From Elusimicrobiota bacterium (lineage in GTDB: Bacteria > Elusimicrobiota > Elusimicrobia > UBA1565), in NCBI GenBank assembly GCA_043827405.1, contig JBDRPD010000054.1, positions 1 through 64,000 on the forward strand: 64,000 bases of DNA. Direction: 5' to 3'. Below the pieces are notes generated by a model, which searched no databases, was not told the DNA's origin, and saw only the letters and a list, made by a program, of their open reading frames with translations. Shown piece after piece: positions 9,392 through 43,893 of the stretch. Every line of letters begins with the position of its first letter. The stretch's first letter is position 1. A program made the position numbers and the translations under genes.

Positions 9392-9799
9392 ATGACGAGC
9401 CGGATTCTGGTAGTTGACGATGACGAAAGGCAGCTGCGCAGTTTCTCGCGGACGCTTTCGCTTCAGGAGGGCTGGGAGGTGTTTACCACCTCTACCGCCG
9501 ACAGCGCGCTCACCAAGACGGAAGAGCTGCGCCCTGACCTGGTTATTTTGGACTGCGATCTCGGGGGAGAGCGGCCGGAAAAAGATGGTTTCTGGGTGCT
9601 GCGTCAGCTGCGCAAGAACGCGCTTTTCAAGCGCTTGCCGGTGATCTTTCTAACCGGCGCCCGGGTGAGCGTCGAAGATCGGGTTGCCGGCCTGGACCTG
9701 ACGGCCGACGACTATATCTTGAAGTCAGCGGATCCCGAAGTGATCCAGATTCGCGTCCAGGCCGCCCTGGACAAGGATAGGGAGCAGTATCGCGCATGA
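9392..9799 (+). CDS. Single-domain response regulator (receiver only)
   Basis: ILVVDDD, PDLVILD (phospho-Asp), VIFLTG, DDYILK. RBS GGAGGAG before ATG 9392. Confidence 0.9.
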   Translation: MTSRILVVDDDERQLRSFSRTLSLQEGWEVFTTSTADSALTKTEELRPDLVILDCDLGGERPEKDGFWVLRQLRKNALFKRLPVIFLTGARVSVEDRVAGLDLTADDYILKSADPEVIQIRVQAALDKDREQYRA

Positions 9800-12700
9800 G
9801 CCGACGCTCCGGCCGGCGGGAAGCGGGAAGGAAGAGCGCTGCGGGTATCGCGGCGCTTTTCCTGATTCTCGCTTTCGGCGGCCGGAGCGGACATGCCCAG
9901 CAGGCAACGCAGACCAACGCACCCAGTCACTCCGAGTTCGCGCTCAACGAGGTGGAACTGGCGGCGCAGGTAATCCGTACCGACAATCTCAGCGGCGTGC
10001 CGGGCCTCACGGTGACCTTTTTCTTCAACGGGTCATCGCAGACGGCGGTCACCGACGCCAACGGCGACGCCACCACGACCTATGCCATGATCTCGGCCTC
10101 CGGCTCCTACGTCTACGGCGCCGCCTGGCTCGGTGACGGCAGCTTCGCGGCCAGCTATTCCACGCGGCCGGTCACCATCAACAAGCGCCCGACCAATATG
10201 GTGCCGTTCGGCTCGGCGGGCTTCGCGCTGGAAAACGTGGAGCCGACCGCCCGTCTGATCGACGGCCTGACCGGCCTCGGCGTGCAGGGGAAGTCGGTGG
10301 ACCTCTGGTTCAACGGCTCGACCCAGACGGCGACCACCGACAGCCAGGGCGACGCGACCAAAAGCTTCTCGGCGCCGGCGACCGCCAGCACCATGCCCTT
10401 TACCGCCACCTTCATCGCGGACGCAATCTATGCCGGCAACAATACGGCCGGGACCGTGACGGTTCAGCGGCGTCCGACGACGCTGTTTCCCGACAACGTC
10501 GACGTCTCCATCAACGCGGACTTCGAGGTGCAGGCGCGGCTCAAGGATACGCGTTCGGGCGGCAACCTCGAGGGCAAGACCATCGATTTCGAGTTCGCAG
10601 GGACGGAGAAGTCGGCGCTGACCAACTCCGTAGGCATCGCCACCGTCACCTATACCGCGCCGGCGGCCACGGGAACCTACACCTATACGGTCGACTTCAG
10701 CAGCGACGCGACCTATGAGGCCTTCTCCGAGACGGGGACGGTGATCGTAGATCTGATAAATACTCTGGTCGTGCCGGTGGACGTGGCGGTGATCTCATCG
10801 GCCAACTTCCTGGCCCGGGCGCAGCTGATCAATACCGACAGCTCGCTCGGCATTCAGGGCAAGACCCTGAAGTTCACCTTCAACGGCTCGACGCTGACCA
10901 ACGTCACCGACTCCTTCGGTATCGCCGGGGTGACCTTCAAGGCCGATATTCTGCCCAGCACCGCGCCTTTTGTGGCGGCCTTCACCGGCGATACGGAGTT
11001 CAAGGCCGGGACCGGGACCGGTACGGTCACCATCAATCAACGGCCGGTGGACGTAACGGCGATCGACGCGAGCGGAATAACCCCCTCTACTTTGTTTATC
11101 GCCTCGGCCACTTTGGCCGATCAGACGACGGGCGGTCCGATCTCGAGCCATACCCTGTCGTTTCTGTTTCAGGGCACCACCGTTTACGGTACTACCAATG
11201 ACGTCGGCCTGGCGACCGCCGCTTTCACCGCGCCCGCCGAGATCGGTCTGTTTAATTTCTACGTGCGCTTTTCCTCGACCATCCTCTACTCGCAGGACAA
11301 CGATACCGGGACGGCCAATGTCCAGAAGATCAATACTCTGCTCTCGGCCGACGACGTCGTGGTTCCGGCCGACACGCTGTTCACCGCCACCGCGACTTTG
11401 ACCGAGGCGGGCAGCGGCGACCCGATCGCCGGCAAGACCGTGACCTTCACCTTCCAGGGACATGTTCAGACCGGGGTTACCGATGCGTTCGGCCAAGCCA
11501 CGACGACCTATATCGCGCCGTCGATCCTGCAGACCTATCCGCTGTCGGTTTCCTTTGCCGGGGACATCACCTACTTCAGCGACAATGACGCGGCCATCGT
11601 TAATGTAATCAAGCGGGAGGTCATGCTGACGCCGGATGAGGTGACGGTGCGCATCGATGAGACGTTTATCGCCACCGCCACCCTCGTCGACGGCTTCGAC
11701 GGCAGCCCGGTGGACGGCGAAAGCATCGAATTCGTCTACGCAGGGAGCACTTTGACCGCGGTCACCGGCGAGTTCGGCGTGCCGGGCGTGGCCACCGTGA
11801 CTTTCTCGGCCCCTTCATCCTCGGCCACTTTGGAGTACACCGTCGAGTTCTTCGTCAACGGCCTATATGAAGGCAAGAAAGAGACCGGCACGGTCAACGT
11901 CATCCTGCCGCCGACCGAGCTGGCGGTCGACGAGGTCAACGTCTTCGCGCTCGGCGTCATCTATGCGACGGCGACCTTGACCGTGGTGGATACGGGCGCT
12001 CCGCTGTCGGGCCGTACGGTGCGGCTTATTTTCGCGGGCTCCACCGTCACCCGCACATCCAACGGCTCGGGCGTGTCGTCGACTACCTTCGCCGCGCCTA
12101 CCACCACCGGAACCTATACGCTGTGGGCGGAGTGGGACGGCGAGACCGACGTCTACGGCGCGACGATCGGTTCAGCCGCGGTGAACGTCCTGGAGCGGCC
12201 GGCGGTCCTTGGGGTTTCCAGCGAAACGGTCACCGTCTCCGCGCTGTTTACGGCTTCGGCGACCTTCACCGACGATCAGAGCAACCCCGTCCTGGGCGCC
12301 ACGGTCTACTTCCTGCTTGACGGCTCGACGCAGACGGCGCTGACCGACGCCCTGGGTTTGGCAGCCACGGACTTCTACGCGCCGGCGTCATCCGGCACCT
12401 ACGAACTGCAGGGTACCTTCGAGTCCAGCGGGACCTATGCGGGCCGGGTATCGTCCGCCGCGCTGACGGTGCTGCCGCGCGCCATGACGCTCTCCGCCGA
12501 TGCGGCCGCGGCCGTCGTCAACGAGGTATTTACCGCCAGCGCTACCCTCACCGTCGGCGGCTCGCCGCTGGAGGGGGTAACGATTCGCTTCGTCTTCAAC
12601 GGCGCCAGTCATACCGCGGTCACCGACGCTCTGGGCGAGGCCACGACCGATTATGCCAGCCCGGCATCGTCGGGCACTTTCGTTCTCGAAACATTCTTTG

Positions 12701-15700
12701 ACGAGACCCCGGTCTACGGCTTCGCGCAGGACACCGCGGATATTACCGTGGCGCCGCGCGCCACCGCGCTCGACGCCGAACCCGGCGCGGTGGTGATCAA
12801 TGAGTTGTTCACCGCTACGGCGACCTTGACCGATTTCGCGGGCCCCGTGGCAGGCCTGACCGTGCGCTTCGTCTTCGCCGGCGCGACCCAGACGGCGGTT
12901 ACCGATGCCCTGGGCGTGGCGACGACGGACTACGCCACGCCGGCGTCCACCGGCACCTTCAATCTGGAGGCCTACTTCGACGCCGATGCCGTCTATGCCG
13001 GCGCCGGCGAGGTGGAGGCGGTTTCGGTGCTGCAGCGGCCGACCGATCTGGCGCTCGATACCGTGACCGTGCGCATCAACCAGGTCTTTATTGCCACCGC
13101 GACCTTGACCGACTTGTACGCCGAGGACGCCGGGATCGCCGACAAGACGATCGATTTCCTGTTCGCGGGTACGCCGAAGTCGGCGCTGACCAGCGGCGTC
13201 GGTCTGGCTTCGGTGACCTATACCGCGCCGGCCTCCTCCGGCCCGTTTTCGCTGCAGGCAACCTACGACGAGGAGGTGATTTACGCGGCCTCTTCGAGCG
13301 TCATCTTGGTGCAGGTGCTCGGCGATGCCGCCGAGCTCTCCGCTCCGGCCGAGAGCCGCGAGATCAACAAGGTGTTCACCGCTTCCGCGACTTTGACCAG
13401 CGGCGGCTCGCCCGTCGATGCTCATACCCTGCGTTTCGTCTTTAACGGCGCGACCCATACGGCGACGACCGACGCTCTCGGCCTGGCTACCTCCGACTAC
13501 GCCATGCCGGCCGCTTCGGGGACCTATATCCTGGAGATCTACTTCGACGGCACGCCGGTTCTCGACGTCTCCTACTCGACCGCGGAGATCGCCGCCCAGC
13601 CGATTCCGGCCGTGCTCTCCGGCGAGAGCGATACCGTCAACGCGCTGGAGGACTTCAAGGCCACCGCGACGCTGACCGGCACCTACGGCCTGGTGCAAGG
13701 CGAGACGGTGCGCTTCGTGCTCAACGGCGCCACCCAGTACGCCGAGACCAACAGCGCCGGCGCAGCCACCGCGACCTACAAGGCGCCCGCCGCCTCGGGG
13801 ACGCATATGCTGGAGTTCTACTACGACGGCAGCCCGGAGTACGACGTCTACGTCACCACCGAGGAGCTGACCGTTCTGCAGCAGGCGACGACTTTGGACG
13901 TCAAAGCCGATACGGTCGCCGTCAATACGCTGCTGATCGCCACCGCGACCTTGAGCCATTCGACCGGGGTGCTGGCCGGCATGCCGATCGAGATAACTTT
14001 CGAGGGCGAGACGCATACCGTCTACACCAACGCTCTCGGCGAGGCCACCACGGGCTTTACCGCTCCGCTCACCTCGGGTACCTATAATATCAGCGCGCAG
14101 TACAACGAGACCGCGACCTACGTGGCCTCCAGTTCCGATACGGACGTCGACATCATGCAGCGCGTGCCGTATCTCGCGATCACCCCGGCGACGGCCATGG
14201 TCGACGGGGTGTTTACGGCCAGCGCCACGCTTACCGACTTCGCGGGCGGGGTGGCCGGCAAGACTATACGCTTCGTCTTCAACGGCGCCAGCCATACCGC
14301 GGTCACCGACGGGCTGGGCCTGGCCACCACCGACTACGCCGTGCCCGAGACCTCGGGGACCTACCGCATCGAGGCCTACTTCGACGAGGACGCCGGCTAC
14401 GAGTTCGCCGGCACGACCGACGCGCTGACGGCGCTGCCGATCCCGGCCGTGCTCTCGGGCCCGAGCATCTCGATCGGCCTCAGCGAAATCTTTACCGCCA
14501 CCGCGACGCTGACGTCGAGCACCGGGCCGCTCACCGGACACGCCATCCGCTTCCTCTTTGCGGTCGCGATCCAGACCGACACCACCGACGGGCTCGGCGA
14601 GGCGACGACCACCTTCTTCTCGCCGTCGTCCTCCGGCACCTATCAAGTGAATTTCGAGTATGACGGGACGCCGCGTTTCGCCGCCATCACCTCCACCGCC
14701 GAGGTCATCGTCCTGCCCGACGCGACGTCTCTGACCGCGCCGGCCACGGCGGCTCTGGCCCTGGAGTCCTTCATCGCCAGCGCGACTTTGACCAGCGGCG
14801 CGAACCCGCTGGCCGGCGAGACCCTGCGCTTCTCGATGGAGGGGACCACGCTGACGGCGGTGGCGGTAACCGACGCGGTCGGCGTAGGCGCGACGATCTT
14901 CCCCGCGCCGGCGTCTTCCGGCACCTATAAGCTGGTGATCGAATACGACGGCAGCGGCATCTACGGCGTGGCCGCCAGCACCGCGGAAGTGGTGATCTCA
15001 TCGCGCATCACCTCCGTCTTCACCTCCTCCGATACGACGCTGACCCTGGACATCTTCACCGCCGCCGCTGCCTTGAGCGACAAGGCCGGCGCGGTCGCAG
15101 GCCAGACCATCCGCTTCGTCTTCGCCGGCGCCACCCAGACGGCGGTCACCGACGCGCTCGGCGTCGCGACGACCGACTATGCCGCGCCGGCGGCCTCGGG
15201 TACCTACCAGCTCGACGTCTTCATGGACGCCACGTCGACCTATGACCTGTCCTACGCCTCCGAGACCATTAAGGTCGACGGGCGCTTTACGGATGTCGTG
15301 CCCAGCAGCGCGGCGACCTTGGTCAGCGCTGTGTTCACCGCCAGCGCTACGCTGACCGATCCGCTGGGCGCGGTCGTCGGCAAGACCGTCTCCTTCCACT
15401 TCAACGGCAGCACGCAGACGGGCATTACCGATGCCCTCGGCCTGGCCACCACCGATTTCGCCTCGCCCGTATCTTCCGGCACCTATCTATTGGAGGTCAC
15501 CTTCAGCACCAGCCCGACCTATATCGGCGCCTCGTCCTGGACCTACGTGGACGCCGCGCCGCGGCCGACGGGGCTGGCGGCGGAGGCCGTACTGATCAAT
15601 ATCAACGAGGTCTATACGGCGACGGCGACGCTGACCCATTCGACCGGCACGCTGGCGGGGCATACGGTGCGCTTCGTGGTCGACGGCACGAGCCAGACGG

Positions 15701-18700
15701 CGGTGACCGACGCTTTGGGCGTCGCCGCCACGGACTACACGGCGCCGGACTCCACGGGCACGCTGGTCCTGGAGATCTACTTCGACGAAACGCCGCACTA
15801 CGGCTTCTCGCAGGCGACCGAGACCATCGTCGTCGTCGGGCGTCCGACCGAGGTTTCCGGGCCGGCGGCCGCCGTCGAGGTGGGCCGGATCTTCACCGCT
15901 TCGGCGACGCTAGTCGACGTCAGTACCGGGCCGCTGGAGGGGCATACGGTGCGCTTCGTCTTCAACGGCGCCACGCATACCGCGGTCACCGACGTTCTCG
16001 GCGAGGCCACCACGGACTATGCCTCGCCGGCGTCTTCCGGCACGTATACGCTGGACATCTACTTCGACGGCACCCAGTACCATGCCCCGAGCGTCTCCAC
16101 CGCCGAGGTGACGGTCACCCCGATCCCGACCAGCCTGGCCTTCGAAGTCCCGGTCGCCTCCGCGGCGGCGGTGTTTACGGCTTCCTCGACCTTGTCGCAG
16201 TACGGCACCCCGATCGCCGGCGAGACCGTTCGCTTCGTCCTCGTCAGCACCACGCATACCGATACCACCGACGGGCTGGGCCGCGCCACCACGGACTATA
16301 CGGCGCCGGCGGCTTCGGGGACCTATCCCATCGGCGCCTACTTCGACGGCACCAGCGCGCTCGCCGAGTCGAGCGCCACCTTGACGCTGACGGTCCTGCA
16401 GCGCGAGTCGTATATCGCGGTTGAAGCGGTCGCCGCGACCGCCAGCGTGGTATTTAAGGCCACCGCGACCTTGAGCGATATGGACGGCCCGGTCGCCGGG
16501 AAGACCCTCTCCTTCTTCCACCGGGGCAGCACCGAGACGGCGGTCACCGACATCCTGGGCGTGGCAACGGTCTCGTTCACCGCTTCCGCCTCCTCGGGGA
16601 CTTTTCCGCTAAGCCTGACTTTGGACGAGGATGCGGCCTATGTATTGACTACCGCATCGGCCGCGGTGACCGTCGCGCCCCGCCCGACCTCGATCGCTGT
16701 GGACTCGGCGACGGTCGCCGCGCTTGATCTTTTCATCGCGACCGCGACCTTGACCGATATCGACGGCGCGGTCGCCGGCGAGACCATGCAATTTGTTCTC
16801 AACGGCATCACGCAGACGGGCGTCACCGACGCCCTGGGCGTCGCGACCACCGGCTTCTACGCTCCGGTTTCGTCCGGTACCTATGCCATCGACGTCACGA
16901 TCGCCGAGACTCCGGCTTATGCGGCGGCTGCCGCCTCGGCCGCTGCCGTCGTAGTGCAGCGCGCCATCCAGATTCGCGGCACCAATATCACGGTGGAGGA
17001 GCTGACGCCCTTTATCGCGGTAGGCAACCTGTTCGACAAGGCTACCGGAGCGCCGCTCGTGAACAAGGATATCGAGTTCTTCTTTGAGCCGGCCGGTTCC
17101 TCGACCGATACTCAGCCGACCAACTCCCTGGGCCGGGCCACCGCGACCTACAGCTCACCTGGCACCGTGGGCAGTTACTTCTACAATGTAACCTTCCTCG
17201 GCGACGCCACCTACGAGACCGGAAACTCTACCGCCATCGTCTTCGTCGGCGAGGCCACCAACCTGCTGGCGCAGGATGTGGACGCGGTGGTTAACAGCAG
17301 CGTTACCGTGATGGCGACTCTGCGTGACGGCTTCGCACAAGCGGTTGTCGGAGAGCAGATTACTTTTACTTTTCAGGGCTCATCGATCACCTCGGTAACC
17401 GACGCCGAGGGTATCGCGCGCGCCACCTTCACCACGCCCGGGACAGGGGGAGACTTTGCCTACCTGGCGGAGTTCGCCGGCAACGGGACCCTCTCGCCGG
17501 CGTCCGACGAGGCCACGGTTCATGTCTCACTGAATATTAGCCTGCTGGCGGCGTTCGACGCTACGGCCATCCAAAACCGGGCATTCCAAGCCAAGGCCAA
17601 GCTGATCGACGTCAGCGACGGCGACGGCATCGCCGGCAAGTCCATAGACTTCCTATTTGGAGGAACGCCCTTGTCCGGTGTTACGGGAAGCGACGGCGTC
17701 GCCGCCGTAACCTTCTCCGCTCCCAACAGCACGGGGACTTATACCTTTACCGCCGACTTCGCGGGCGACGCGACCTACTCCGGCAGCGATTCGACCGGCA
17801 CCATCACCGTGCTCGAGGCCAGCGGCGAAGCCGGCGCCAATCCCACCAAGATTAATGCGCTGAAGATCACGGCGCGAGCGGAAACCGTGTTCGCCGCGCG
17901 GGCGACCTTGATCGACCTAAATGTAAATGCCGGACTTTCCGGCAAGCCGCTGTTGTTTATCTTCGGCTCATCCAGTACGCTGACGACGACGAATTCGGCC
18001 GGAGTCGCCCAGGCGACTTTTACCGCGCCGTCATCCTCGGGCGCCTTGGTCTATACCGTTCAGTTCGCCGGCGACGGTCAGTTCTCCTCAAGCCAGGCCA
18101 CCCAGACCGTGGCGGTCGGCCTGCTCGCCCCCCGCGATCCCGCCGGTCTGCAGGCCGCGGTTCTCTCGGCGACGCAGATGCGGCTGACCTGGCAGCCTGT
18201 GACCGCGGCGGAAAGCGGCGAAGACATGACGGCGCTGGTCGCCGAATACTGGGTAGAAAAGGCCGTGGATCCGGCCGGCAGCTGGACCTCGACGGCGGTG
18301 GTCTCGACCACTTCGGCGCTGGCCTTCACCGCCGACATCGAGGCCGCCGCGGTCTATTATCGGGTGCGGACTCTTAGCACGCAGGGAGAGTCCAGCCGAG
18401 GCCTGGCCATAGCCGAGGTGTCGGCCGCGCCGCAGGCCGTCTTTATGGCGCCGGATAATGAAGCCTGGGTCGCGCTTCCCGAAGGCGCGCGCGCCTTGAT
18501 CGCGAGCAAGTACGGCGCGGGAGCCGGTGTCCAGGTGAGCTCGGAAGCGCCGGGCGGCTTCCTCAGCATCTACAACTATCAGCTGGTGCGCGACGGTGAG
18601 ACGCTGATCGACGCGGCCGCCGGCGAGGGCCGTTACGGCGCGCAGATCGTGCTCTCCTATGCCGGCCTCGGCAGCGGCGCCGCAATGCAGGCGGACCAGC

Positions 18701-19125
18701 GGCAGGTCGTCTACTGGCACAACGGGGTGGAGTGGGTCAAGCTGGGCGGCCAGAACGACGCCCTGCGCAGCCGCATCTCGGTGCGCTCCAACCGCCTGGG
18801 CCGCTTCGCTCTGGGCTACGGGACGCTGGCCTCCGACTTCTCGCTGACCAAGGTGGCGCCCCGCATCTTCACGCCGGGCGCCGCGGACATAACGATCAAC
18901 CGCGCGGTTTTCTATTTCGAAAACCCGGCGGACAACGATGTCACGATCCGCATATTCGATATCACCGGCGCCGTCGTCCGGAGGAACCTCCTGCGCGACG
19001 GCAGCAACATGATTTATTGGGACGGCAAGGACTCCGGCGGGACGGAAGTCAAGGGCGGGGTGTACATCTACCAGATCGAGGGAGATGACGAGGTGCATAC
19101 GGGCACCGTCGTCGTGGCGAAATGA
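9796..19125 (+). CDS. Giant surface protein/adhesin: about 29 Big_1-like Ig repeats, an FN3-like domain and a C-terminal FlgD-Ig/T9SS-type sorting domain
   Basis: Signal peptide. Repeats of about 97 aa with consensus FTASATLT..AG.TVRFVFNG.T.TAVTDALG.ATTDY.AP..SGTY. MRLTWQPV...YYRVRT is FN3-like. C-terminus PRIFTPG...IRIFDITG...WDGKDSGG..VKGGVYIYQI...GTVVVAK. Confidence 0.9.
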   Translation: MSRRSGRREAGRKSAAGIAALFLILAFGGRSGHAQQATQTNAPSHSEFALNEVELAAQVIRTDNLSGVPGLTVTFFFNGSSQTAVTDANGDATTTYAMISASGSYVYGAAWLGDGSFAASYSTRPVTINKRPTNMVPFGSAGFALENVEPTARLIDGLTGLGVQGKSVDLWFNGSTQTATTDSQGDATKSFSAPATASTMPFTATFIADAIYAGNNTAGTVTVQRRPTTLFPDNVDVSINADFEVQARLKDTRSGGNLEGKTIDFEFAGTEKSALTNSVGIATVTYTAPAATGTYTYTVDFSSDATYEAFSETGTVIVDLINTLVVPVDVAVISSANFLARAQLINTDSSLGIQGKTLKFTFNGSTLTNVTDSFGIAGVTFKADILPSTAPFVAAFTGDTEFKAGTGTGTVTINQRPVDVTAIDASGITPSTLFIASATLADQTTGGPISSHTLSFLFQGTTVYGTTNDVGLATAAFTAPAEIGLFNFYVRFSSTILYSQDNDTGTANVQKINTLLSADDVVVPADTLFTATATLTEAGSGDPIAGKTVTFTFQGHVQTGVTDAFGQATTTYIAPSILQTYPLSVSFAGDITYFSDNDAAIVNVIKREVMLTPDEVTVRIDETFIATATLVDGFDGSPVDGESIEFVYAGSTLTAVTGEFGVPGVATVTFSAPSSSATLEYTVEFFVNGLYEGKKETGTVNVILPPTELAVDEVNVFALGVIYATATLTVVDTGAPLSGRTVRLIFAGSTVTRTSNGSGVSSTTFAAPTTTGTYTLWAEWDGETDVYGATIGSAAVNVLERPAVLGVSSETVTVSALFTASATFTDDQSNPVLGATVYFLLDGSTQTALTDALGLAATDFYAPASSGTYELQGTFESSGTYAGRVSSAALTVLPRAMTLSADAAAAVVNEVFTASATLTVGGSPLEGVTIRFVFNGASHTAVTDALGEATTDYASPASSGTFVLETFFDETPVYGFAQDTADITVAPRATALDAEPGAVVINELFTATATLTDFAGPVAGLTVRFVFAGATQTAVTDALGVATTDYATPASTGTFNLEAYFDADAVYAGAGEVEAVSVLQRPTDLALDTVTVRINQVFIATATLTDLYAEDAGIADKTIDFLFAGTPKSALTSGVGLASVTYTAPASSGPFSLQATYDEEVIYAASSSVILVQVLGDAAELSAPAESREINKVFTASATLTSGGSPVDAHTLRFVFNGATHTATTDALGLATSDYAMPAASGTYILEIYFDGTPVLDVSYSTAEIAAQPIPAVLSGESDTVNALEDFKATATLTGTYGLVQGETVRFVLNGATQYAETNSAGAATATYKAPAASGTHMLEFYYDGSPEYDVYVTTEELTVLQQATTLDVKADTVAVNTLLIATATLSHSTGVLAGMPIEITFEGETHTVYTNALGEATTGFTAPLTSGTYNISAQYNETATYVASSSDTDVDIMQRVPYLAITPATAMVDGVFTASATLTDFAGGVAGKTIRFVFNGASHTAVTDGLGLATTDYAVPETSGTYRIEAYFDEDAGYEFAGTTDALTALPIPAVLSGPSISIGLSEIFTATATLTSSTGPLTGHAIRFLFAVAIQTDTTDGLGEATTTFFSPSSSGTYQVNFEYDGTPRFAAITSTAEVIVLPDATSLTAPATAALALESFIASATLTSGANPLAGETLRFSMEGTTLTAVAVTDAVGVGATIFPAPASSGTYKLVIEYDGSGIYGVAASTAEVVISSRITSVFTSSDTTLTLDIFTAAAALSDKAGAVAGQTIRFVFAGATQTAVTDALGVATTDYAAPAASGTYQLDVFMDATSTYDLSYASETIKVDGRFTDVVPSSAATLVSAVFTASATLTDPLGAVVGKTVSFHFNGSTQTGITDALGLATTDFASPVSSGTYLLEVTFSTSPTYIGASSWTYVDAAPRPTGLAAEAVLININEVYTATATLTHSTGTLAGHTVRFVVDGTSQTAVTDALGVAATDYTAPDSTGTLVLEIYFDETPHYGFSQATETIVVVGRPTEVSGPAAAVEVGRIFTASATLVDVSTGPLEGHTVRFVFNGATHTAVTDVLGEATTDYASPASSGTYTLDIYFDGTQYHAPSVSTAEVTVTPIPTSLAFEVPVASAAAVFTASSTLSQYGTPIAGETVRFVLVSTTHTDTTDGLGRATTDYTAPAASGTYPIGAYFDGTSALAESSATLTLTVLQRESYIAVEAVAATASVVFKATATLSDMDGPVAGKTLSFFHRGSTETAVTDILGVATVSFTASASSGTFPLSLTLDEDAAYVLTTASAAVTVAPRPTSIAVDSATVAALDLFIATATLTDIDGAVAGETMQFVLNGITQTGVTDALGVATTGFYAPVSSGTYAIDVTIAETPAYAAAAASAAAVVVQRAIQIRGTNITVEELTPFIAVGNLFDKATGAPLVNKDIEFFFEPAGSSTDTQPTNSLGRATATYSSPGTVGSYFYNVTFLGDATYETGNSTAIVFVGEATNLLAQDVDAVVNSSVTVMATLRDGFAQAVVGEQITFTFQGSSITSVTDAEGIARATFTTPGTGGDFAYLAEFAGNGTLSPASDEATVHVSLNISLLAAFDATAIQNRAFQAKAKLIDVSDGDGIAGKSIDFLFGGTPLSGVTGSDGVAAVTFSAPNSTGTYTFTADFAGDATYSGSDSTGTITVLEASGEAGANPTKINALKITARAETVFAARATLIDLNVNAGLSGKPLLFIFGSSSTLTTTNSAGVAQATFTAPSSSGALVYTVQFAGDGQFSSSQATQTVAVGLLAPRDPAGLQAAVLSATQMRLTWQPVTAAESGEDMTALVAEYWVEKAVDPAGSWTSTAVVSTTSALAFTADIEAAAVYYRVRTLSTQGESSRGLAIAEVSAAPQAVFMAPDNEAWVALPEGARALIASKYGAGAGVQVSSEAPGGFLSIYNYQLVRDGETLIDAAAGEGRYGAQIVLSYAGLGSGAAMQADQRQVVYWHNGVEWVKLGGQNDALRSRISVRSNRLGRFALGYGTLASDFSLTKVAPRIFTPGAADITINRAVFYFENPADNDVTIRIFDITGAVVRRNLLRDGSNMIYWDGKDSGGTEVKGGVYIYQIEGDDEVHTGTVVVAK

Positions 19126-21032
19126 GGACGCGGAAACTCGGCTCAGCCGTTCTGCTCGCGGGAGCGCTGCTCGCCGCGCTCCCCGGCCGTGCCCGCGCGT
19201 CCTTTGAGGATACGGAATTCGGACCGCGGGGGACGGCCATGGCGGGCGCGGTGGCTTCCAATATGCCCCATGCCACCGCCATGTTCTACAACCCCGCGCT
19301 TATGACGGGAGTTCAGACCCCCGAGTTCTTTACCTCCTACGAGAATATGTATATGGGCCTTACCGACGGCAGCAAGCTGACGCGGCAGCTGCTCGCCCTG
19401 GCTTATCCGCTCAATCGCGGTCGCCGGGGGTATTTGGGATTGGGCGTCAATATGTTCGCGCTGGATGCGCTCTATAAAGAGCAGGCGATCATGCTGAACT
19501 ACGGCCGCGCGGTCGGCAAGAAGCTCAGCTGGGGCCTGGGAATCCGTCAGCTCTCAGTGACTTACGGCTCCGATGAATACACGACCGGCAAGGCGGAGTC
19601 CGCGGCCGGCGGCAGCGCGTCGGCCATGGGGCTGGACCTGGGAATTCAGTACCGGAGCAAGGGGCGCCGCATCGGCTTCGCGATTCTCAACGCCAATGAG
19701 CCGGACCTCGGCATCGTGTCGGCCAATAAAGTGGACCGCACGATAAATATCGGTATCGCGAAGATGCAGCCGACCTGGGAATGGCAGAACCAATTAACCC
19801 GCACCGGCGCCGACATCCGCCTCAAGTCGGGCCTGGAGCACCGGGGCGCCTTCAAGAGCGTCGCGCTCCGCGTCGGCTTCAGCATCGGCTCGCGCCAGTA
19901 CCGCAATATCGCCATGGGCTTCGGATATATCCGGGAGAAGTTCCAGATCGACTACGCCATGCTGATGCCGGTGAGCGGAGTTTCCTCCGGCATGGGTAAT
20001 CATCAGGTGGGTCTGACCTGGAGGTTCGGCCGGGGCAAGCGGCGCAAGGAGAAGGAGCCCAAGCGGGATGACGATGACGAGGAGCGGATCATCGTCGCTC
20101 CGGCGACGACCACGGTGCAAATTTCACGGCCGGCCATCGTTATGGAAATGGCCCGCAAGCAGGCCGATTCCCTGGTCTCGGACGCTATGGGCATGCTCGA
20201 TGTCGCGGACTATGACGGAGCGCTCAAGAAGCTGCGCAAGGCGAACGACCTGCCGGTGGAGGATCCGCAGTACAAGATGCTCGAGGTTCGAGTAGCGGCC
20301 GTGGCGCGGCTCGACCCCAGCATCAAGGGCGGCTACACCAAGAACCGGCTGGTCCGGCGCGGGCTCAGCGCCTTCGCTCTCGGCGACGGAAAGACGACTC
20401 TCGAATCGCTGCTCTACGCCAAGCAGAAATGGCCCAGCGACAAGGAGATCGAAAGGCTTTACGAGCTGGCCGCGCGCCAGTATCCGGACATCGGCGCGCG
20501 CATGAAGCCCATCCAGGGGCTCAACGTGGCGGATCAGAAGCTCGAAGAGGCGCTGTCGCTGATCTACGACGGACAGTATACGGCCGCGGTGACCCTGTGC
20601 CAAGAGGTCCTGGAGCTTGAGCCCAACAGCGTGCTGGCGCTGGTGCGGCAGGGATCGGCGTATTGGGCGCTGGGACGGCGCCAGACCGCGCGGGCGGTAT
20701 GGAAGCGCGCATTGGAGCTGGACCCGGGGAACAAGGACGTGCTTGAGTTCCTTAACCGCAAGGAGCCCGCGCCCGCGACGCCGTCGCCTGGCGCGCAGCC
20801 TTCGGTGAAGCCTGTCGCCGAGCCTGCCGCCCAGCCGGCCGTACAGCCGGCGGGCAAGCCGTCCGCGGAGATTGAGAAGCAGTACAAAGAGCAGGTGGAA
20901 TACTACAAGCGCATGCAGCGCATGGGGGTCAATAAGCACATGCTGGAGCTGATCCTCAAGCAAATGGTTCGGCGCTTTGAAGGGACCGGCATCGACATGA
21001 AATACCTCAAGGAGGAAGCCAAGAAATACTGA
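19122..21032 (+). CDS. PorV/PorP(FadL)-like outer-membrane beta-barrel fused to C-terminal TPR repeats
   Basis: Signal peptide, GPRGTAMAGA...MFYNPAL N-terminal hatch motif, alternating beta-strands ending NHQVGLTWRFG, then TPRs (VLELEPNSVLALVRQGSAYWALG, WKRALELDPGN). Confidence 0.8.
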   Translation: MRTRKLGSAVLLAGALLAALPGRARASFEDTEFGPRGTAMAGAVASNMPHATAMFYNPALMTGVQTPEFFTSYENMYMGLTDGSKLTRQLLALAYPLNRGRRGYLGLGVNMFALDALYKEQAIMLNYGRAVGKKLSWGLGIRQLSVTYGSDEYTTGKAESAAGGSASAMGLDLGIQYRSKGRRIGFAILNANEPDLGIVSANKVDRTINIGIAKMQPTWEWQNQLTRTGADIRLKSGLEHRGAFKSVALRVGFSIGSRQYRNIAMGFGYIREKFQIDYAMLMPVSGVSSGMGNHQVGLTWRFGRGKRRKEKEPKRDDDDEERIIVAPATTTVQISRPAIVMEMARKQADSLVSDAMGMLDVADYDGALKKLRKANDLPVEDPQYKMLEVRVAAVARLDPSIKGGYTKNRLVRRGLSAFALGDGKTTLESLLYAKQKWPSDKEIERLYELAARQYPDIGARMKPIQGLNVADQKLEEALSLIYDGQYTAAVTLCQEVLELEPNSVLALVRQGSAYWALGRRQTARAVWKRALELDPGNKDVLEFLNRKEPAPATPSPGAQPSVKPVAEPAAQPAVQPAGKPSAEIEKQYKEQVEYYKRMQRMGVNKHMLELILKQMVRRFEGTGIDMKYLKEEAKKY

Positions 21033-21046
21033 ACAAGACGGGACGG

Positions 21047-22585
21047 ATGCGGCCAATGAAGACAACTTTGCTCTGCTTAATTTTATTGATGCTCGGCGTG
21101 CCCGTCCTGGGCGCCCAGCCTCCTGTTCAGCCGCCGACCAGCGGGCGGATGCTGCAGGAGATCCACGCTTTGATGCTCGAGCAGCAGATGGAGGATCGTC
21201 TGGCCGGCAGTTTGCGCTTTGAGCTCGGGACGCAGAACGTGATGGTGCTGGCGCGTATCCGGCTGATGGAGAAGCCCGCCGCCGGGCCCGGACCGGGGAG
21301 CGCGCAGTCTCTCGCCCCCAGCCTTACCGGGAACCTGCTGCCGGGCGTCCCCGCCGACCGGGGATTGCCTAATGTCATCAACGAAAAGAAGCCGGTGCCG
21401 ACGACGGAGGTCCTGCAGCTGGTCAAGCATGTCACCGTGATACTGGGCAAAGATATTCCCCGGGACCGGTCCCAGCGGATCAAGCAGCGCACCACGGAGC
21501 TGCTCGGGTTGGACCTGGAACGCGGGGACACCGTTTCGGTCGAGTTTCAGGCGCCCGCGCAACCCCCCGCGCCGGGTGACGGCAAAAGCAAGACGTCGGG
21601 AGACGTCGCCGCATGGCAGCTCGACGCATTGGTCCTGCTGCTGCTGCTCTTTCTGGGATTTTCGATACTCTTTATGCGGCTGCTCCGGGTTTCGTTCGGC
21701 GACATATCGGCCGGCCTGGCGGCGATCCCGAAGGCGGTATCCGGCGGCGGTGGCGGAGGAGGGGGTGGAGGAGGCGGCCGTGTGGAGTTGACGGGCGCCG
21801 AGATGGCGGCCGCGGCGCAGGATGCCGGACCCGCACGCTTCGGCTTCGTCAACCGCGCCAATCTGGAGCGCTTTCTCGAAATTCTCGCGAAATCGAGCGC
21901 GAGCGACCTTTCGGTGGTGCTGGAATGCCTGCCCGATCGCATGGCCGCGGCCGTATTCAACCGGCTGCCGACCGAGCTTCAGGGGGAACTGCTCGTGTAC
22001 GGCCGGGAGGCTCGTCACTCGGACCCCAAGGAGGTCGAGCGGATCGAAGAGCGGCTGCGCCAGGAGATGGGCTTCGGGCACGGCGGCCTGGACAAGATGA
22101 GCATGCTCCTCCAGCGCGCGGACGACGAGGCGCAGACGGAAATCATGAAGGTCCTCGAAGAGAAGGAGCCCGAGCTGGCGAAGAAGCTATCCGATAATCT
22201 CTTCGATTTCAAGGAGGTGCTCTACTACGACCAGAAGAGCATCCAGCGCATATTCCGCGAGATCGGCATCGAGAGCTTCGTGCGCCTCCTGGAGCCGTTC
22301 GATGAGAGTCTGCGCGAGGAGTTTTACGAGAAGCTGAGCCCCGATGTGGTGACCATGCTCAAAGAGCGGCTGCAGGTGATACCGCAGGTGTCTTCCGAGG
22401 AGTGGAAGGAAGACAGCCTCGGGGCGTTCGAGAAGATCAAGCGGCTGGGGACGCAGAATATCATTCCGCCGTTCGGCAAGATCAGCCGCAAGCGCAACCC
22501 GGCGCTGCAGGATGAGGCCGCGCTGCGGGATGCGGCGGACATGGACGAAAATCCTGAGACGGGTGAAGATCCGGATATGGAGTAA
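21047..22585 (+). CDS. FliF ring-building domain / TM / FliG middle and C-terminal domain fusion protein
   Basis: Periplasmic part MEDRLAGSLRFELGTQNVMV and IKQRTTELLGLDLERGDTVSVE resembles FliF RBM3. One TM and a poly-Gly linker follow. GGLDKMSMLLQRAD...EKEPELAKKLSDNLFDF...DQKSIQRIFRE resembles FliG. Confidence 0.78.
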   Translation: MRPMKTTLLCLILLMLGVPVLGAQPPVQPPTSGRMLQEIHALMLEQQMEDRLAGSLRFELGTQNVMVLARIRLMEKPAAGPGPGSAQSLAPSLTGNLLPGVPADRGLPNVINEKKPVPTTEVLQLVKHVTVILGKDIPRDRSQRIKQRTTELLGLDLERGDTVSVEFQAPAQPPAPGDGKSKTSGDVAAWQLDALVLLLLLFLGFSILFMRLLRVSFGDISAGLAAIPKAVSGGGGGGGGGGGGRVELTGAEMAAAAQDAGPARFGFVNRANLERFLEILAKSSASDLSVVLECLPDRMAAAVFNRLPTELQGELLVYGREARHSDPKEVERIEERLRQEMGFGHGGLDKMSMLLQRADDEAQTEIMKVLEEKEPELAKKLSDNLFDFKEVLYYDQKSIQRIFREIGIESFVRLLEPFDESLREEFYEKLSPDVVTMLKERLQVIPQVSSEEWKEDSLGAFEKIKRLGTQNIIPPFGKISRKRNPALQDEAALRDAADMDENPETGEDPDME

Positions 22586-22597
22586 GCGGGAGGGGAC

Positions 22598-23356
22598 ATG
22601 GCTTTGCTGTCATTACTCGGACTATTGCTGGGCCTGAGCACGGTGGCTTACGTGCTGTGGGACGGCGGCATCATCGCCGTTTTCGTCAACGTCAACGCCA
22701 TTATTCTGGTTTTCGGCGGCACTATCGGCGCCACCATGATCACCTACCCCTGGAAGATCGTGAAGCAGCTGCCGCGCGCCTGGTGGATTGTGTTCTTTCC
22801 CCGGAAAAGCCGCGATCCGCAGGAGCTTATCGATCAGCTGATGGATATCCAGCAAGTCGTTTATACCGGCGGGATCGACGACGTAGACATCAATACCATC
22901 GGCGACGGCTTCCTGCGCTCCGGTCTGCGCATGATCCTCGAGGAGCAGTCCGAGCAGGACCTGCGCGATGAGCTGGAGACGGAGGTGTTCTACGAGCGTC
23001 AGCGCAAGCAGCGCGTTATCGATGTGTTTCGCGCCATGGGGGACTTCGCCCCCATCTTCGGTCTCCTCGGGACGCTCATCGGCATCGTCCAGGTGCTGAA
23101 ATTTCTCGGCAGCCCCGAGCAGATGGGCAACTATATGGCGCTGGCCATCACCACCACGTTCTACGGCATCTTCGGCTGCAACTTCATCTTTTTGCCCACC
23201 GCGGGCAAGCTCGAAGGGTATTCCGAGGATGGTTTGCTGCTTATGGACCTCATTATCGTGGGGGTCCTCAGCATCCGGCGCCGCGAGCGTCCCACCGTGA
23301 TGCGCCGCCGGCTGGAGCGCTTTCTGACGCAGCGGCGCAAGGCGGCGGTGAAATAA
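22598..23356 (+). CDS. motA: MotA/PomA-type stator subunit
   Basis: IILVFGGTIGA, DGFLRSGL, APIFGLLGTLIGIVQVL, MALAITTTFYG, FLPTAGKL. Confidence 0.88.
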   Translation: MALLSLLGLLLGLSTVAYVLWDGGIIAVFVNVNAIILVFGGTIGATMITYPWKIVKQLPRAWWIVFFPRKSRDPQELIDQLMDIQQVVYTGGIDDVDINTIGDGFLRSGLRMILEEQSEQDLRDELETEVFYERQRKQRVIDVFRAMGDFAPIFGLLGTLIGIVQVLKFLGSPEQMGNYMALAITTTFYGIFGCNFIFLPTAGKLEGYSEDGLLLMDLIIVGVLSIRRRERPTVMRRRLERFLTQRRKAAVK

Positions 23357-24024
23357 TGCGCGGCAAGCGTACCGTCAAGGCCCGGCCGAAATCGCAGGTA
23401 TGGCTGACGGTATACAGCGACATCGTCACCAACCTGATGATGTTTTTTCTCGTGCTCTACGCCAGCACCCGGTTCTCGGCGGACGTGCAGCAGAAGGTGA
23501 CCGCGAACGTCATGCAGACCTTCGAATCGGCCGAGAAGCGGCAGGAGCAGGCGCAGGTTCAGGAATCCGCGCTCGCGAGCCTGCAGGCGCTGCAGGAGCT
23601 CGGCGCGGAGCTGCGGGTCGCCGGCATCAGCATGAAGAAGGAGCATGACGGCGTAACGCTGCAGCTGCCCGAGGCCGACTCCTTCGACTTCGGCCGCGCC
23701 GAGCTCAAGCCGGAGATGCGGAAGATTCTCGACGTCATCGGCCCGCCGCTGCGCAAGTACCCGCATGTCATCATCCTGGAGGGCCACACGGACGACCGGC
23801 CGATGCATGCGAAGTCGCCGTACCGGACCAACTGGGAGCTCTCTTTCGCCCGGGTGCAGAGCGTGCTGGGCTACCTGGTGACCGAGAAGCACCTGCCGCC
23901 GGAGCGGCTGGTGGCGATCGGCCGGGGCGAGCATCGTCCGGTAGTGCCCAACGATACGCCGGAAAATCGCGCGCGCAACCGGCGCACGGAGATCAAGCTG
24001 CGTGCCGCGGAGATCGATCCGTGA
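23356..24024 (+). CDS. motB: MotB-type stator subunit with OmpA-like peptidoglycan-binding domain; conserved Asp present
   Basis: WLTVYSDIVTNLMMFFLVL, EGHTDD, NWELSFAR, NRRTEI. Confidence 0.88.
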   Translation: MRGKRTVKARPKSQVWLTVYSDIVTNLMMFFLVLYASTRFSADVQQKVTANVMQTFESAEKRQEQAQVQESALASLQALQELGAELRVAGISMKKEHDGVTLQLPEADSFDFGRAELKPEMRKILDVIGPPLRKYPHVIILEGHTDDRPMHAKSPYRTNWELSFARVQSVLGYLVTEKHLPPERLVAIGRGEHRPVVPNDTPENRARNRRTEIKLRAAEIDP

Positions 24025-24695
24025 GCAAGTCCATCCGCGAGGCGATCGCCGTCCGGAAGAGAATGGACTGGCAGATCATTTATGTCAACCTGATGACTTT
24101 GCTGATGATCTTCTTCATGGTGATATACTCCATGGAGTCCGTGGGCCAGGCCACGGGCCGGGAGACCGACTACGAACGCGTGATCGGCGTGATTCAGGGA
24201 ATGTTCGGCGGCGAATCCAATGTGCTCCGCGTCAGCCGCGCCGAGCGCCGCGATAAAGAAAAGCGCCTGGTCGAAGACCTCAAGTCCCTGGACTCCGCGG
24301 CGGCCGAAGTGGAGGTTACGCGGGAAAAGATCAAGGTGACCATGCCGAGTCCCGTTCTGTTCGACTCCGGTTCGGCCGATCTGCGGCCGGAATCGGTTAA
24401 AGTTCTCGGCGGCCTCGCTTCGCGGCTGCGCAGCCTGGAAGGCAACCGCATCGTGATCGAGGGGCATACCGACGATAAGCCGCTGCTGCCGGGCTCGGCG
24501 TTCAAGGACAACTTCGAGCTGTCGGCGCGCCGCGCGCTGGGAATCCTGTATTTTCTGACGGAGCAAGGCGGTATGCCCCCCGCCTCGCTTACGCCGGTAG
24601 GCTATGGTGAGTTCCGTCCGGCGGCTCCCAACACCTCAGCGGCGAACCGCGCCAAGAACCGTCGTATCGAAATTCATATAATTCGGGAAAAATGA
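24021..24695 (+). CDS. Second MotB paralog with the TM Asp replaced by Asn
   Basis: [46 protein letters not shown]. Confidence 0.85.
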
Positions 24696-26104
24696 GATTG
24701 AAGTGGCGCATCATGATGTTGAGCGCCCTGCTGGTGACCGGCCTGGTCTCGGTCACTATGGGCCTCCTGTACCGGGCGCAGAAGCGGCAGCTTTTGCAGC
24801 GCCTGGAAAGCGAGCGGCATCAGGCGCTCACGCGTATGGCGCGCGTCTGCCGCGAGACCCTGGAGGCGGAGTCGGAGATTATCCTGCTCAACGACATGAA
24901 GCTTTCGCTCGAGGCCTACCCGATACTGAAGATCGGACTGTGGGATACGCGGGGGCGGCTGCAGATCCATTCGGACTTCGTCGAAGGGCGCTACGACGGA
25001 GTGGGCAAGCACGCGCAGGATCCCTTTGTCGCGCGGGCCAATAAAGCCGACGGCGTGATCTCCGAGCGGGCGGGCCGCGTCCTTAAGCTGGCCAGTCCCG
25101 TGCACATGAAAGGCAAGCGCTTCGGCTCGGTGGTGGCGCATTACGATCTGGACCGGATTGAAGGGAGCGTGAGCGCGGTGCTGCGCGGGCAGCTGCGCAT
25201 GCTGGCGCTGGCCGGGGCCGGAGCGCTGGTCGTCGGGCTTTTGGGCTCGCTGCTCCTGGCGTCGGCGGTTTCCGAACCGGTACGCCGCCTGAGCGAGGCG
25301 GCGCGGCGCTTCGGCAGCGGCGACTTCGACAGCTTCTCGGGGATTCATCGCAAAGATGAGCTCGGCGCGCTGTCGCGGGACCTCGATGCCATGGCCGCGC
25401 GGCTCAAGGAGCTGGATCAGATGAAGGATCGCTTCATGCAGAGCATGTCGCATGATATGCGCTCGCCGCTGGCGGTGATGCAAAGCTCGCTGCACCATGC
25501 CAAGAAGACGCTGGACAAGGGCGCAGTAGACATAAAGGAAGACCTCGAGGATATGGAGCAGGCGGTTCAGGACCTGCTCAAGTTCGTCAATAATATTCTC
25601 GATTTGGCCAAGCTCCAGGCCGACCGGGTGGAGTTCAGCATCGTGCCGGTCAAGGTTACCACGATGCTGGACCGGACGCGCCTGTCCTTCCGTCGGCTGG
25701 CCGAACAGCGCAAGATTTCGCTCAAAGTGGAAACCGCGGAGAAACTGCCCAAGGTGCGGGCCGATCATGAGTATATTCACCATGTGGTATCGAACTTGGT
25801 GATGAACGCGATCAAGTTCACTCCCGAAGGCGGGTCCATTCGAGTATCCGCCAGCGATGAGGGCGGCATGGCGCGGATTACGGTGCGCGATACCGGCCAT
25901 GGGATTCCCCAGGATCGGCTCGACAGCGTGTTCGGCCGCTTCGAGCAGGTGAGCGAGGCGCGCAAGAAGAGCTCCGGCGGGCCGGGAACCGGGCTCGGGT
26001 TGTCCATCGCCAAGGAAATCGTCGAGCGGCATGGCGGGCGAATCGGCGTCGAATCCGAACTCAACAAGGGATCGGCGTTCTTTTTTACGCTGCCGTACGC
26101 CTAG
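24692..26104 (+). CDS. HAMP-containing sensor histidine kinase
   Basis: Two TMs, HAMP ([13 protein letters not shown]), H-box SHDMRSPL, N-box [21 protein letters not shown]. Confidence 0.93.
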
Positions 26105-26106
26105 CC

Positions 26107-26784
26107 ATGAAGCCGAAGATCCTCATCGTCGATGAAGAGCGGGCGGGCGGCGAAGCGGCCGCGGCGCTGGAGGCGGCCGGCTGCCGCGCCCAGACGGTCG
26201 CGACGGGTGAAAAAGCCGTCGGTCTGCTGGCTTCTTTCAAACCCGACGTGCTGATTACTGAGATCGAGCTGCCCGGCATTTCGGGCTTTGCCCTGCTCGA
26301 TGTCGTGGGGGGCGAGAAGGCGGCGGAGGGCACGCGGACGATGGTGGTCACCTCTGATCCCGGCCGCGATATCGTGGCCCGCGCCTTCGAGAAGGGCGCC
26401 GAGGATTTTTTGGTCAAGCCCTTCGACATCCGCGAGCTGGTAGCGCGAGTCGAGGTTCTGCTGCGCCGAATGCGCCGGGAGCCCGTAAGCGAGCACATCC
26501 GCTGGGGGACGCTGTCGTTGGATGCGAACTCACGGCGCGCCTTCGTGGGCAAGCAGGCGGTGCGCCTGACCAAAGTGGAGTTCGGGGTGCTGCTGCTGCT
26601 GGTGCAGAAGGCGGGCCGCATCCTGCCCCGCGACTATCTGCTGCGGTACCTGTGGGGAGGCGCCGCTCAGGGGCGGACGCGCACGGTGGATATGCATGTC
26701 GCCAATATCCGGCGCAAGCTCGGCAAGCTGGGCCGGTCGATCGAGACGATCAAGGGCGTCGGCTACCTGCTGCCCCGCGCTTAA
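26107..26784 (+). CDS. OmpR/PhoB-family response regulator with atypical receiver (phospho-Asp replaced by Glu)
   Basis: ILIVDEE, PDVLITEIELPG, DFLVKPF, winged helix RTVDMHVANIRRKL...GVGY. Confidence 0.9.
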   Translation: MKPKILIVDEERAGGEAAAALEAAGCRAQTVATGEKAVGLLASFKPDVLITEIELPGISGFALLDVVGGEKAAEGTRTMVVTSDPGRDIVARAFEKGAEDFLVKPFDIRELVARVEVLLRRMRREPVSEHIRWGTLSLDANSRRAFVGKQAVRLTKVEFGVLLLLVQKAGRILPRDYLLRYLWGGAAQGRTRTVDMHVANIRRKLGKLGRSIETIKGVGYLLPRA

Positions 26785-28082: not shown

Positions 28083-28407
28083 GTCATTTGCTCTGCGGTC
28101 TTGCGGCGGCTCATCTGATGCTTGTCGGTCGGGAAAGTGGTTTTTTCATGTGCGGCGAGATGGATGATTTTAGCATGTCTCGATCGAGCGCTGGATTTTC
28201 GCCGCGATTCGCCGGTGCGGATGACCATGGCGCGTCTTGAGCTTGTAATACAGCGCTGAGACCGCGCCGGTTCGCCGACTTGGCCCGGGCCCAGTTGATT
28301 TTGCTGGAATTATCAGCTCAATTTTTATGATTTTTGCAGCAGCTCGGCGGCGGAACAAGCCGGCTGTTAGTGCCGACCTGCGCCGTCCGAAAAGCTAGAA
28401 TGTCGGC

Positions 28408-35955: not shown

Positions 35956-36076
35956 TATAATCATAGCGTACCCTGTAATCCTTAAAATTGGTTAAGGAGT
36001 ATCCACCCCCGGCCGGAACCGGGGTGACCAGGGGAAACAGATGAGTCGTTTCACTGTTTCCCCTGGTCATTTTTTT
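35956..36076 (+). promoter_or_regulatory. TATAAT promoter followed by a structured leader ending in a strong intrinsic terminator upstream of the subtilase gene
   Basis: TATAAT at 35956. TCCTTAA/TTAAGGA hairpin. 16-bp stem TGACCAGGGGAAACAG/CTGTTTCCCCTGGTCA (36025-36069) followed by T7. Confidence 0.6.
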
Positions 36077-43868: not shown

Positions 43869-43893
43869 TTCAGCCTTCCTCAATACGCGAGAT

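Follow-up and report, generated by a model that had tools for sequence, protein, structure and literature searches.

What does a flagellar-type rotor and stator do in one operon with a giant exported protein? The question is raised by the window analyzed here, a stretch of 64,000 nucleotides (contig JBDRPD010000054.1, our C54) from the 4.33-Mb genome (63% GC) of an Elusimicrobiota bacterium. Nine open reading frames (ORFs) occupy positions 9392..26784 of its plus strand, with stop and start codons that overlap or nearly adjoin, as a preliminary description made from the letters alone had claimed, and AGGGAGG, which resembles a ribosome-binding site (RBS), lies upstream of the ATG at 9392. Domains were assigned with Pfam and NCBIfam profiles, followed by profile-profile and fold searches for an outer-membrane barrel and for the N-terminus of a FliF/FliG fusion. 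The key finding, a flagellum-free flagellar motor core together with surface-protein genes, suggests a machine, so far undescribed, by which surface proteins are turned or moved.

Export gate, rod, filament and FliM/N had no match in the whole genome, which is 97.97% complete: searches for flagellin, FlhA, rod proteins and FliM/N were empty, and the controls were positive (in 4 of 14 genomes). No flagellar gene set thus lies elsewhere in the genome, in line with what had been noticed in the window. The same genome holds five fusions and four flagellar-type MotA. Three MotA-fold genes of ExbB/TolQ length were also present, as was a lone FliG_C match in a frame of 87-92 amino acids (aa) at G000:C99:20208-20459 (G000 being this genome), for which the ORFs listed show no neighboring stator.

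The rotor gene encodes, in order, a signal-like N-terminus, a FliF RBM3 domain, one transmembrane (TM) helix, a glycine-rich linker and the FliG middle and C-terminal domains. Its N-terminal domain matched residues 231-508 of Salmonella FliF by profile (E 2e-11), and residues 31-171 of the model superimposed on the FliF structures 6scn/8z5v with Z 12.1-12.6 and a root-mean-square deviation of 2.3-2.4 over 97-101 residues. The proposed fusion of FliF and FliG was thereby confirmed, with RBM3 as the only FliF contribution. Pfam recognized FliG_M and FliG_C, and positions 111-308 of the TIGR00207 profile aligned to fusion residues 264-455; the FliG torque domain of the flagellum is present, while a full FliF (TM1, RBM1-3, TM2, FliF-C and a separate FliG-N) is reduced to RBM3 and one TM helix. 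The missing FliF parts normally house the export gate, and the fusion also lacks the joint between FliF-C and FliG-N. In Salmonella, a deletion fusion of FliF and FliG without FliF-C and FliG-N is reported to rotate still (PMC6445934). In both proteins the membrane ring is joined directly to the FliG middle and C-terminal domains; the Salmonella mutant, as described there, retains RBM1/2, FliM/N and a whole flagellum, whereas the Elusimicrobiota fusion is natural, phylum-wide and flagellum-free.

A homologue search with the window's fusion as a single sequence returned none, and relatives emerged with profiles. We compared 84 fusions, five of them from this genome and the others from 80 stretches hand-picked from the FliG_C list, spread over families and with long contigs favored; no fusion was present in three stretches (flagellar FliG in two, a truncated one in the third), and each of two others yielded a pair of fusions. 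A single hydrophobic stretch before RBM3 and a single one after it were found in 77/84. The LPGVP loop carries P99 in 79/79 and G100 in 78/79 aligned sequences, the proline being the sole invariant residue of the family. In a gappy part of the alignment, it lies opposite PGGVPG in the RBM3 insertion of Salmonella FliF, a stretch that we take to be one of the rod-binding FliF loops. The closest fusion to the window's copy was found in stretch L058. FliF loops rising from the beta-collar have been described as binding the rod and transmitting torque (bioRxiv 2025.12.04.692373).

Profile matches of MotA to flagellar MotA/PomA structures ranged from E 1e-79 to 1e-69, and TolQ was matched only at E 0.005. 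The flagellar-type MotA and two MotBs claimed earlier were upheld, with an ion-binding Asp in the first MotB and Asn in its place in the second. Among relatives, the Asp was kept in 27/27 single MotBs, and of 31 tandem MotB pairs both members kept it in 18, one in 13 and neither in 0. Since the Asp is always retained at least once, the ion channels probably work and may be heterodimeric; judged from the sequences, the stator ion path is under selection.

The giant protein begins with a signal-like N-terminus and continues with Ig-like repeats, 29 in tandem of ~97 aa each, over residues 37-2780; an FN3-like region comes next, then a C-terminal sorting domain (CTD) of the kind known from type IX secretion systems (T9SS). 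Pfam gave a weak FlgD_ig/CHU_C/Por_Secre_tail match at the C-terminus, the family profile of the CTD had the PorU CTD as its top PDB match (E 1e-8) with FlgD Ig domains next (1e-7), and TIGR04183 was matched with E 1e-4 and 22 bits (cut-off 23). The cargo thus bears a T9SS sorting domain, and of the "giant CTD adhesin" of the preliminary description the Ig repeats and the tail stand, "adhesin" being what the repeat architecture suggests. Among the loci searched, the repeat is shared only with L058. CTD-ending open frames of 17,000-19,400 aa occur in G010:C1, G031:C2, G063:C6 and G071:C1.

The downstream barrel matched Pfam PorV_fam (E 6e-13, under its cut-off) and TPR (tetratricopeptide repeat). 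A profile search gave PorV at E 4e-27, and the model (pLDDT 84) consists of beta-barrel strands, a disordered linker and then helical repeats, with PorV (6h3i_F) as first Foldseek match and FadL-family barrels close behind. The barrel, earlier called PorV/PorP-like, is thereby settled as a PorV-fold carrier with TPRs. In this genome, 24/27 CTD proteins are followed by their own barrel, a one-cargo-one-barrel pairing that resembles the Type B T9SS substrates with a dedicated carrier each (PMC12635249). Only 5/28 barrels have a TPR match, and 3 of these 5 directly precede a fusion. The genome also encodes a SprA-like protein of 1,909 aa (G000:C17:8074-13803, minus strand) with three collinear matches, the best at E 8e-20 and under the cut-off; TIGR04189 detected this SprA-like translocon and Pfam SprA_N missed it. 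GldM and GldN, the two Gld components covered, were not found in this genome by searches that had no positive control.

The association of these genes is conserved. A barrel-TPR gene lies within 3.5 kb upstream of 57/84 fusions (within 300 bp for 45), a CTD gene within 8 kb of 54/84, and MotA within 8 kb of 57/84, a figure limited by stretch length; all three were near 26/84, and 78/84 fusions have a fused or stand-alone TPR partner. Linkage of the mot/fliG genes to the CTD/PorV genes thus extends to relatives. Gene order is kept across classes at ~20% identity, and the order of the window (receiver, cargo, barrel-TPR, fusion, MotA, two MotBs, regulator) recurs, for example in L066, L072 and L055. 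In a quick tree, used only to see subtypes, the window's copy stands on a long branch.

Three other subtypes were seen. In one, the rotor carries a cytoplasmic TPR and is accompanied by long coiled-coil proteins, FlbD and cargos of 10,000-19,000 aa. In this FlbD subtype, the best conserved of them, a c-di-GMP-I riboswitch precedes the barrel gene in 4/4 loci tested (L013, L023, L035, L038) and in the copy on contig C49; none was found in the window, nor in L058, L066 and L072. In the paralogous motor operon on C49, the riboswitch (G000:C49:7820-7896) is located after a gene for a giant CTD protein and ahead of the one for the barrel-TPR. Between the rotor and flbD-motA-motB, long and probably coiled-coil proteins (700-1,850 aa) are encoded at L059:12889-17679, L038:12728-15997 and L023:13047-15344. 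Another subtype has a stand-alone TPR protein and a different 640-aa partner (L048:8734-10755; G000:C68 ~26000-28100), possibly an outer-membrane protein, which is often found with FecR-domain and CARDB/carboxypeptidase-regulatory-domain proteins. Pfam and NCBIfam gave no match for the 640-aa family and no informative one for the coiled-coil and lipoprotein partners of the other subtypes. In the third, a kinase stands beside the rotor or is fused to it: at G000:C42:20691-23174 (827 aa), and likewise in L009, the rotor N-terminus is joined in frame to a histidine kinase, and a separate histidine kinase gene adjoins the rotor in L019, L021, L024 and L033.

The distribution of the motor was determined in a phylum sample of 151 genomes including this one, which was used throughout. 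FliG_C was present in 56/151, three with a short FliG only and 53 with a long frame; the RBM3 fusion was checked directly in 40 of these 53 and inferred from frame length in 13. Flagellin exceeded the cut-off in 4/151 genomes, two of them among the 53 fusion-bearing ones, so that 51/53 lack it. A remnant of a fragmented flagellar locus is ruled out by the flagellum-free genome and the flagellin-free relatives. MotA_N was found in 47/151 genomes, a SprA-like protein in 141/151 (none over the cut-off), the CTD in 133/151 and a PorV-like barrel in 148/151; GldM was found in 0/151 by a search without positive control. The TPR-tail profile, scored on the best 20 candidates per genome, matched in 52/53 fusion-bearing genomes and in 0/98 others. 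All but one of the named homologues are labelled Elusimicrobiota, Elusimicrobia or Endomicrobia, the exception being Omnitrophica; the assignment to the phylum rests on such labels. A narrow alignment scan of one subtype, of a kind unable to show range beyond the phylum, gave 11/12 loci labelled Elusimicrobiota. As had been proposed, a minimal flagellar rotor and stator has thus been co-opted; this happened in the absence of a flagellum, and the link to CTD cargos and PorV-like TPR barrels spans the phylum.

The other part of that proposal, that the motor energizes secretion, did not hold as a general role. Two large families with small genomes (46 and 44 genomes), probably host-associated, have no MotA_N match and no fusion, and mostly retain SprA (SprA-like in 45/46 and 35/44), barrel and CTD. 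CTD proteins in motor-less genomes number 25 (G100), 23 (G054), 22 (G060), 17 (G108) and 11 (G120), with one frame of 4,018 aa. Because genomes without the motor still hold SprA-like, barrel and cargo genes, the motor is not a general secretion engine; that possibility is ruled out by the SprA-like, PorV-like and CTD genes of genomes without fusion, MotA and TPR tail. Moreover, 23/28 barrels of the present genome lack the tail, and plain barrels accompany cargos of 5,597 and 3,589 aa. Because the export genes survive without the motor and the TPR tail tracks it, ordinary cargo-barrel pairs would be static, with a subset hooked to the rotor by the tail. Static display units, some with an added tail, are the simplest reading, and the predicted movement of the displayed protein is the better-supported half of the secretion-or-movement proposal.

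We therefore favor, on about even terms with all alternatives combined, the view that the operon encodes a rodless, ion-driven rotary motor that moves a giant surface protein after its export. The giant protein would be exported through the SprA-like translocon by means of its CTD and would stay on its own PorV-like barrel. By analogy with the flagellar motor, the FliF-RBM3/FliG fusion would form a membrane ring, and peptidoglycan-anchored MotA5B2 stators would turn it. The TPR tail of the barrel may reach into the periplasm and bind RBM3, probably at the LPGVP loop, in place of a rod; with the tail bound to the RBM3 of a turning ring, torque would spin or drag the barrel and its Ig-repeat filament (~100 nm, estimated from 29 domains), which could serve to move over surfaces, to attach or to reel in. 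The receiver, kinase and OmpR genes at the flanks may regulate the machine or report on it. Of this scheme, the folds, the cargo-barrel gene pairing and the conserved channel residues are observed.

For the contact between TPR tail and RBM3, complex prediction gave 0.45 against 0.02 for the best control, a result rated weak, with contact agreement between runs of at least 28%, a partner pLDDT of at least 61 and no interface given. The mark applied was reached by 116/157 solved and 2/215 mismatched pairs, and at scores of up to 0.60 by 18/157 solved pairs and both mismatches. We know of no solved TPR-RBM3 complex. The earlier suggestion of coupling through the TPRs of the barrel thus found weak model support, unlike the general secretion role attached to it. 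A parallel to a tail that hooks the barrel to the rotor is offered by the SprF carrier barrel, whose periplasmic C-tail is reported to couple SprB to a track driven by a motor, a function that can be separated from export (PMC12635249).

Several observations weigh against a motor that moves its cargo. FliM/FliN, the normal stabilizer and switch of the FliG ring, are missing from the genome, and no chemoreceptors were found in it; nine PilT-family genes over the cut-off are present, so pili could supply surface motility. No nearby TPR partner was seen for 6/84 fusions, and 27/84 have no barrel-TPR gene upstream, 12 of these standing beside a different protein. Because kin are not independent, the 52/53 pattern of the TPR tail reflects few loss events and yields no statistic. 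Thin as it is, an Ig chain makes a poor propeller, and the TPR tail has to pass through the peptidoglycan. The evidence consists of sequences and models, and rotation, ring assembly and cell movement are all predictions.

The torque interface is likewise unusual. In the canonical numbering (MotA R90/E98, FliG R281/D288/D289; PMC12505986), the stator-rotor charge pairs are not found in this copy, and the family retains part of the set. The basic pair of MotA, kept by 47 and 45 of 59 family members, is absent here, and the FliG Arg281-equivalent, mapped via the profile alignment, is Gly in 54/79 fusions; this copy has Asp, Glu and Arg at the positions aligned to R281/D288/D289. These altered MotA and FliG charges imply a changed electrostatic gear. 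Since Arg also occupies the Asp289-equivalent in the FliG of L058, a charge swap is possible, suggested by two sequences only. The basic pair is also missing in 14/15 aligned closest relatives, in which Asp94 is invariant; an odd MotA surface that they share, together with invariant channel residues, indicates a subfamily trait and not decay. A decayed stator is ruled out by the retained Asp, the intact channel residues and the shared MotA surface.

It is unlikely that the motor is instead a dedicated export energizer for particular barrel-cargo complexes, which for those cargos would replace the GldLM/GldKN energy chain, either by pulling barrel and cargo out of the SprA-like translocon or by winding a very long cargo through it. 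GldM found in none of the 151 genomes and GldN not found in this one (searches without positive control) would fit such a role, as would carrier-cargo ejection, reported to be an energy-requiring T9SS step (PMC12635249), and the 10,000-19,000-aa open frames beside one subtype. However, the SprA-like protein is kept in most genomes of the sample, including the motor-less families, where up to 25 CTD proteins and the 4,018-aa frame occur; the cargos of 5,597 and 3,589 aa in this genome are paired with plain barrels, and some of the proteins encoded ahead of TPR barrels consist of a CTD only, at 120-160 aa.

Slightly less likely still is a surface or load sensor, in which a bound adhesin would load the rotor and shift stator activity, with kinases and receivers as readout and movement as an incidental effect; it would be compatible with movement after export. 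This operon and many relatives have kinase or receiver genes at their flanks, one subtype fuses a histidine kinase to its rotor, the charges of the torque interface are altered and chemoreceptors were not found, all of which would suit a sensor. Yet the best-conserved subtype cassettes are mostly without a kinase gene, and sensing gives no obvious need for up to five paralogous motors with their own cargos. Least probable are two co-regulated modules without contact (an orphan rotor-stator serving type IV pili, envelope remodeling or ion transport) or decaying motor relics: a role in twitching or gliding has been suggested for orphan motAB/fliG (bioRxiv 2022.07.08.499144), and this copy has a long branch and no MotA of >41% identity in 100 other genomes of its order, but the TPR tail tracks the rotor rather than barrels, gene order outlasts divergence to ~20% identity, reading frames are intact with the MotB Asp always kept once, and the MotA surface and invariant channel residues are common to 14/15 closest relatives.

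Of the post-export motor itself we consider a bolder form tentatively, and with more doubt than belief: the TPR tail of the barrel could be a drive shaft, gripped by the rod-holding loop and spinning a single T9SS-exported Ig filament of up to 19,000 residues, with several filament- and stator-matched motors per cell, a flagellum-like organelle rebuilt from two unrelated systems.

The arrangement is real, conserved and selected. It belongs neither to the flagellum nor to the canonical T9SS or gliding apparatuses, and in the way it works it is probably a hybrid between them and the flagellum. With the flagellar motor core it shares the RBM3 fold, the FliG middle and C-terminal domains, a flagellar-type MotA, MotB with plug and OmpA-like domain and, in a paralogous subtype, FlbD next to motA. 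Unlike in the flagellum, the rotor of the operon is a single chain with a signal-like N-terminus and without TM1/RBM1/RBM2, FliF-C and FliG-N, and the genome combines the absence of FliM/N, export gate, rod and filament with several paralogous motors, paired MotBs and altered torque charges. A candidate SprA-like translocon, PorV-fold carriers and CTD cargos, with one carrier per cargo, recall the Bacteroidota T9SS with Type B cargo and Flavobacterium gliding (SprB-SprF-GldK track, GldLM motor; PMC12635249), as does the presumably periplasmic C-tail on a carrier whose surface protein is very long. In contrast, GldM/GldN were not found here (no positive control), the motor is MotAB with a FliF/FliG ring, the SprA homologue measures ~1,900 aa and stays under the family cut-off, and the tail is a TPR array of ~210 aa instead of a Cys-x-Cys motif. 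SprF is a PorP-type protein, and the carriers here are PorV-like. ExbBD-TonB, TolQRA and ZorAB are similar in being ion-driven inner-membrane 5:2 motors that act on an outer-membrane or surface partner, but they use no FliF/FliG ring, and the MotA described here matches flagellar stators. Agl-Glt of Myxococcus is likewise a repurposed 5:2 motor without a FliF/FliG ring.

Numerous motAB, flbD and fliG homologues of unclear or enigmatic role have been reported in non-flagellated free-living Elusimicrobiota (bioRxiv 10.1101/2022.07.08.499144), and these orphans are almost certainly the genes studied here. In its available text, that preprint suggests a Gld or twitching link and does not mention the FliF fusion, barrel-TPR, CTD cargos, SprA or an operon. 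Very large Elusimicrobiota proteins have been noted, in the available text without T9SS or motor terms (bioRxiv 2023.11.21.568195; PMC11573180), the accessible part of a MotAB phylogeny (PMC12505986) does not mention the phylum, and the corresponding parts of PMC12204202, PMC12057145 and PMC7031533 hold nothing on the cassette. No description of the fusion, the barrel link or the cassette in this phylum was found in the literature covered, supplements and subscription papers being outside its scope.

The features of the operon are collected in Table 1. Elsewhere in the window, a separate transporter operon (28408-32313) encodes a LolA-like protein, two FtsX/MacB-type permeases and an ABC ATPase-like ORF. 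A 2dG-II purine riboswitch (35968-36036) lies just upstream of the gene for a 785-aa subtilase (36103-38460), an unusual pairing. On the minus strand, a TPR-CHAT protein of 1,137 aa stands beside a DUF4384 protein (42885-47307), and a caspase-domain protein is encoded at 55877-57205; these genes are possibly proteolytic signaling or defence modules.

Table 1. Features of the operon, with positions in the window.
Feature	Position	Strand	Basis
Stand-alone receiver-domain protein, 135 aa	9392..9799	+	Response_reg E 7e-21; RBS-like sequence before ATG
Giant exported protein, 3,109 aa	9796..19125	+	Big_3_5 E 3e-85, Invasin_D3; repeat count
CTD of the giant protein	18853..19122	+	Family profile to PorU CTD; TIGR04183
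PorV-fold outer-membrane barrel with C-terminal TPR tail, 636 aa	19122..21032	+	Profile, model, Foldseek
TPR tail of barrel, presumed periplasmic	20124..20765	+	TPR-tail profile restricted to motor-bearing genomes
One-chain rotor (FliF RBM3/FliG fusion), 512 aa	21047..22585	+	Profile and model fold matches
FliF RBM3 (S-ring) domain, fusion residues 31-171	21137..21559	+	Fold match to FliF 6scn/8z5v
LPGVP loop of fusion	21338..21352	+	Top-conserved motif of fusion family
FliG middle and C-terminal domains, no FliG_N	21836..22486	+	TIGR00207; Z 13.8 to 1lkv
MotA, flagellar type	22598..23356	+	Profile E 1e-79 to 1e-69
MotB, plug and OmpA-like peptidoglycan-binding domain, Asp22 intact	23356..24024	+	MotB_plug and OmpA
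Second MotB, Asn23 replacing Asp	24021..24695	+	MotB_plug and OmpA
Membrane sensor histidine kinase (two TM helices, HAMP, HisKA, HATPase)	24692..26104	+	Domain search
OmpR/PhoB-type response regulator	26107..26784	+	Domain search

If the proposed coupling is true, Elusimicrobiota would show the flagellar rotor and stator at work in nature, phylum-wide and without a flagellum, and would provide a novel way of delivering proton-motive force to the cell surface. The minimal rotor, one chain plus MotAB, is a test case for what torque requires without FliM/N or an export gate, and it is relevant to possible origins or reuses of the flagellar motor. T9SS-like export is extended to a phylum without detected GldM, raising the question of what powers SprA. 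For the free-living Elusimicrobiota, the machine offers a candidate job for both their giant proteins and their orphan mot genes.

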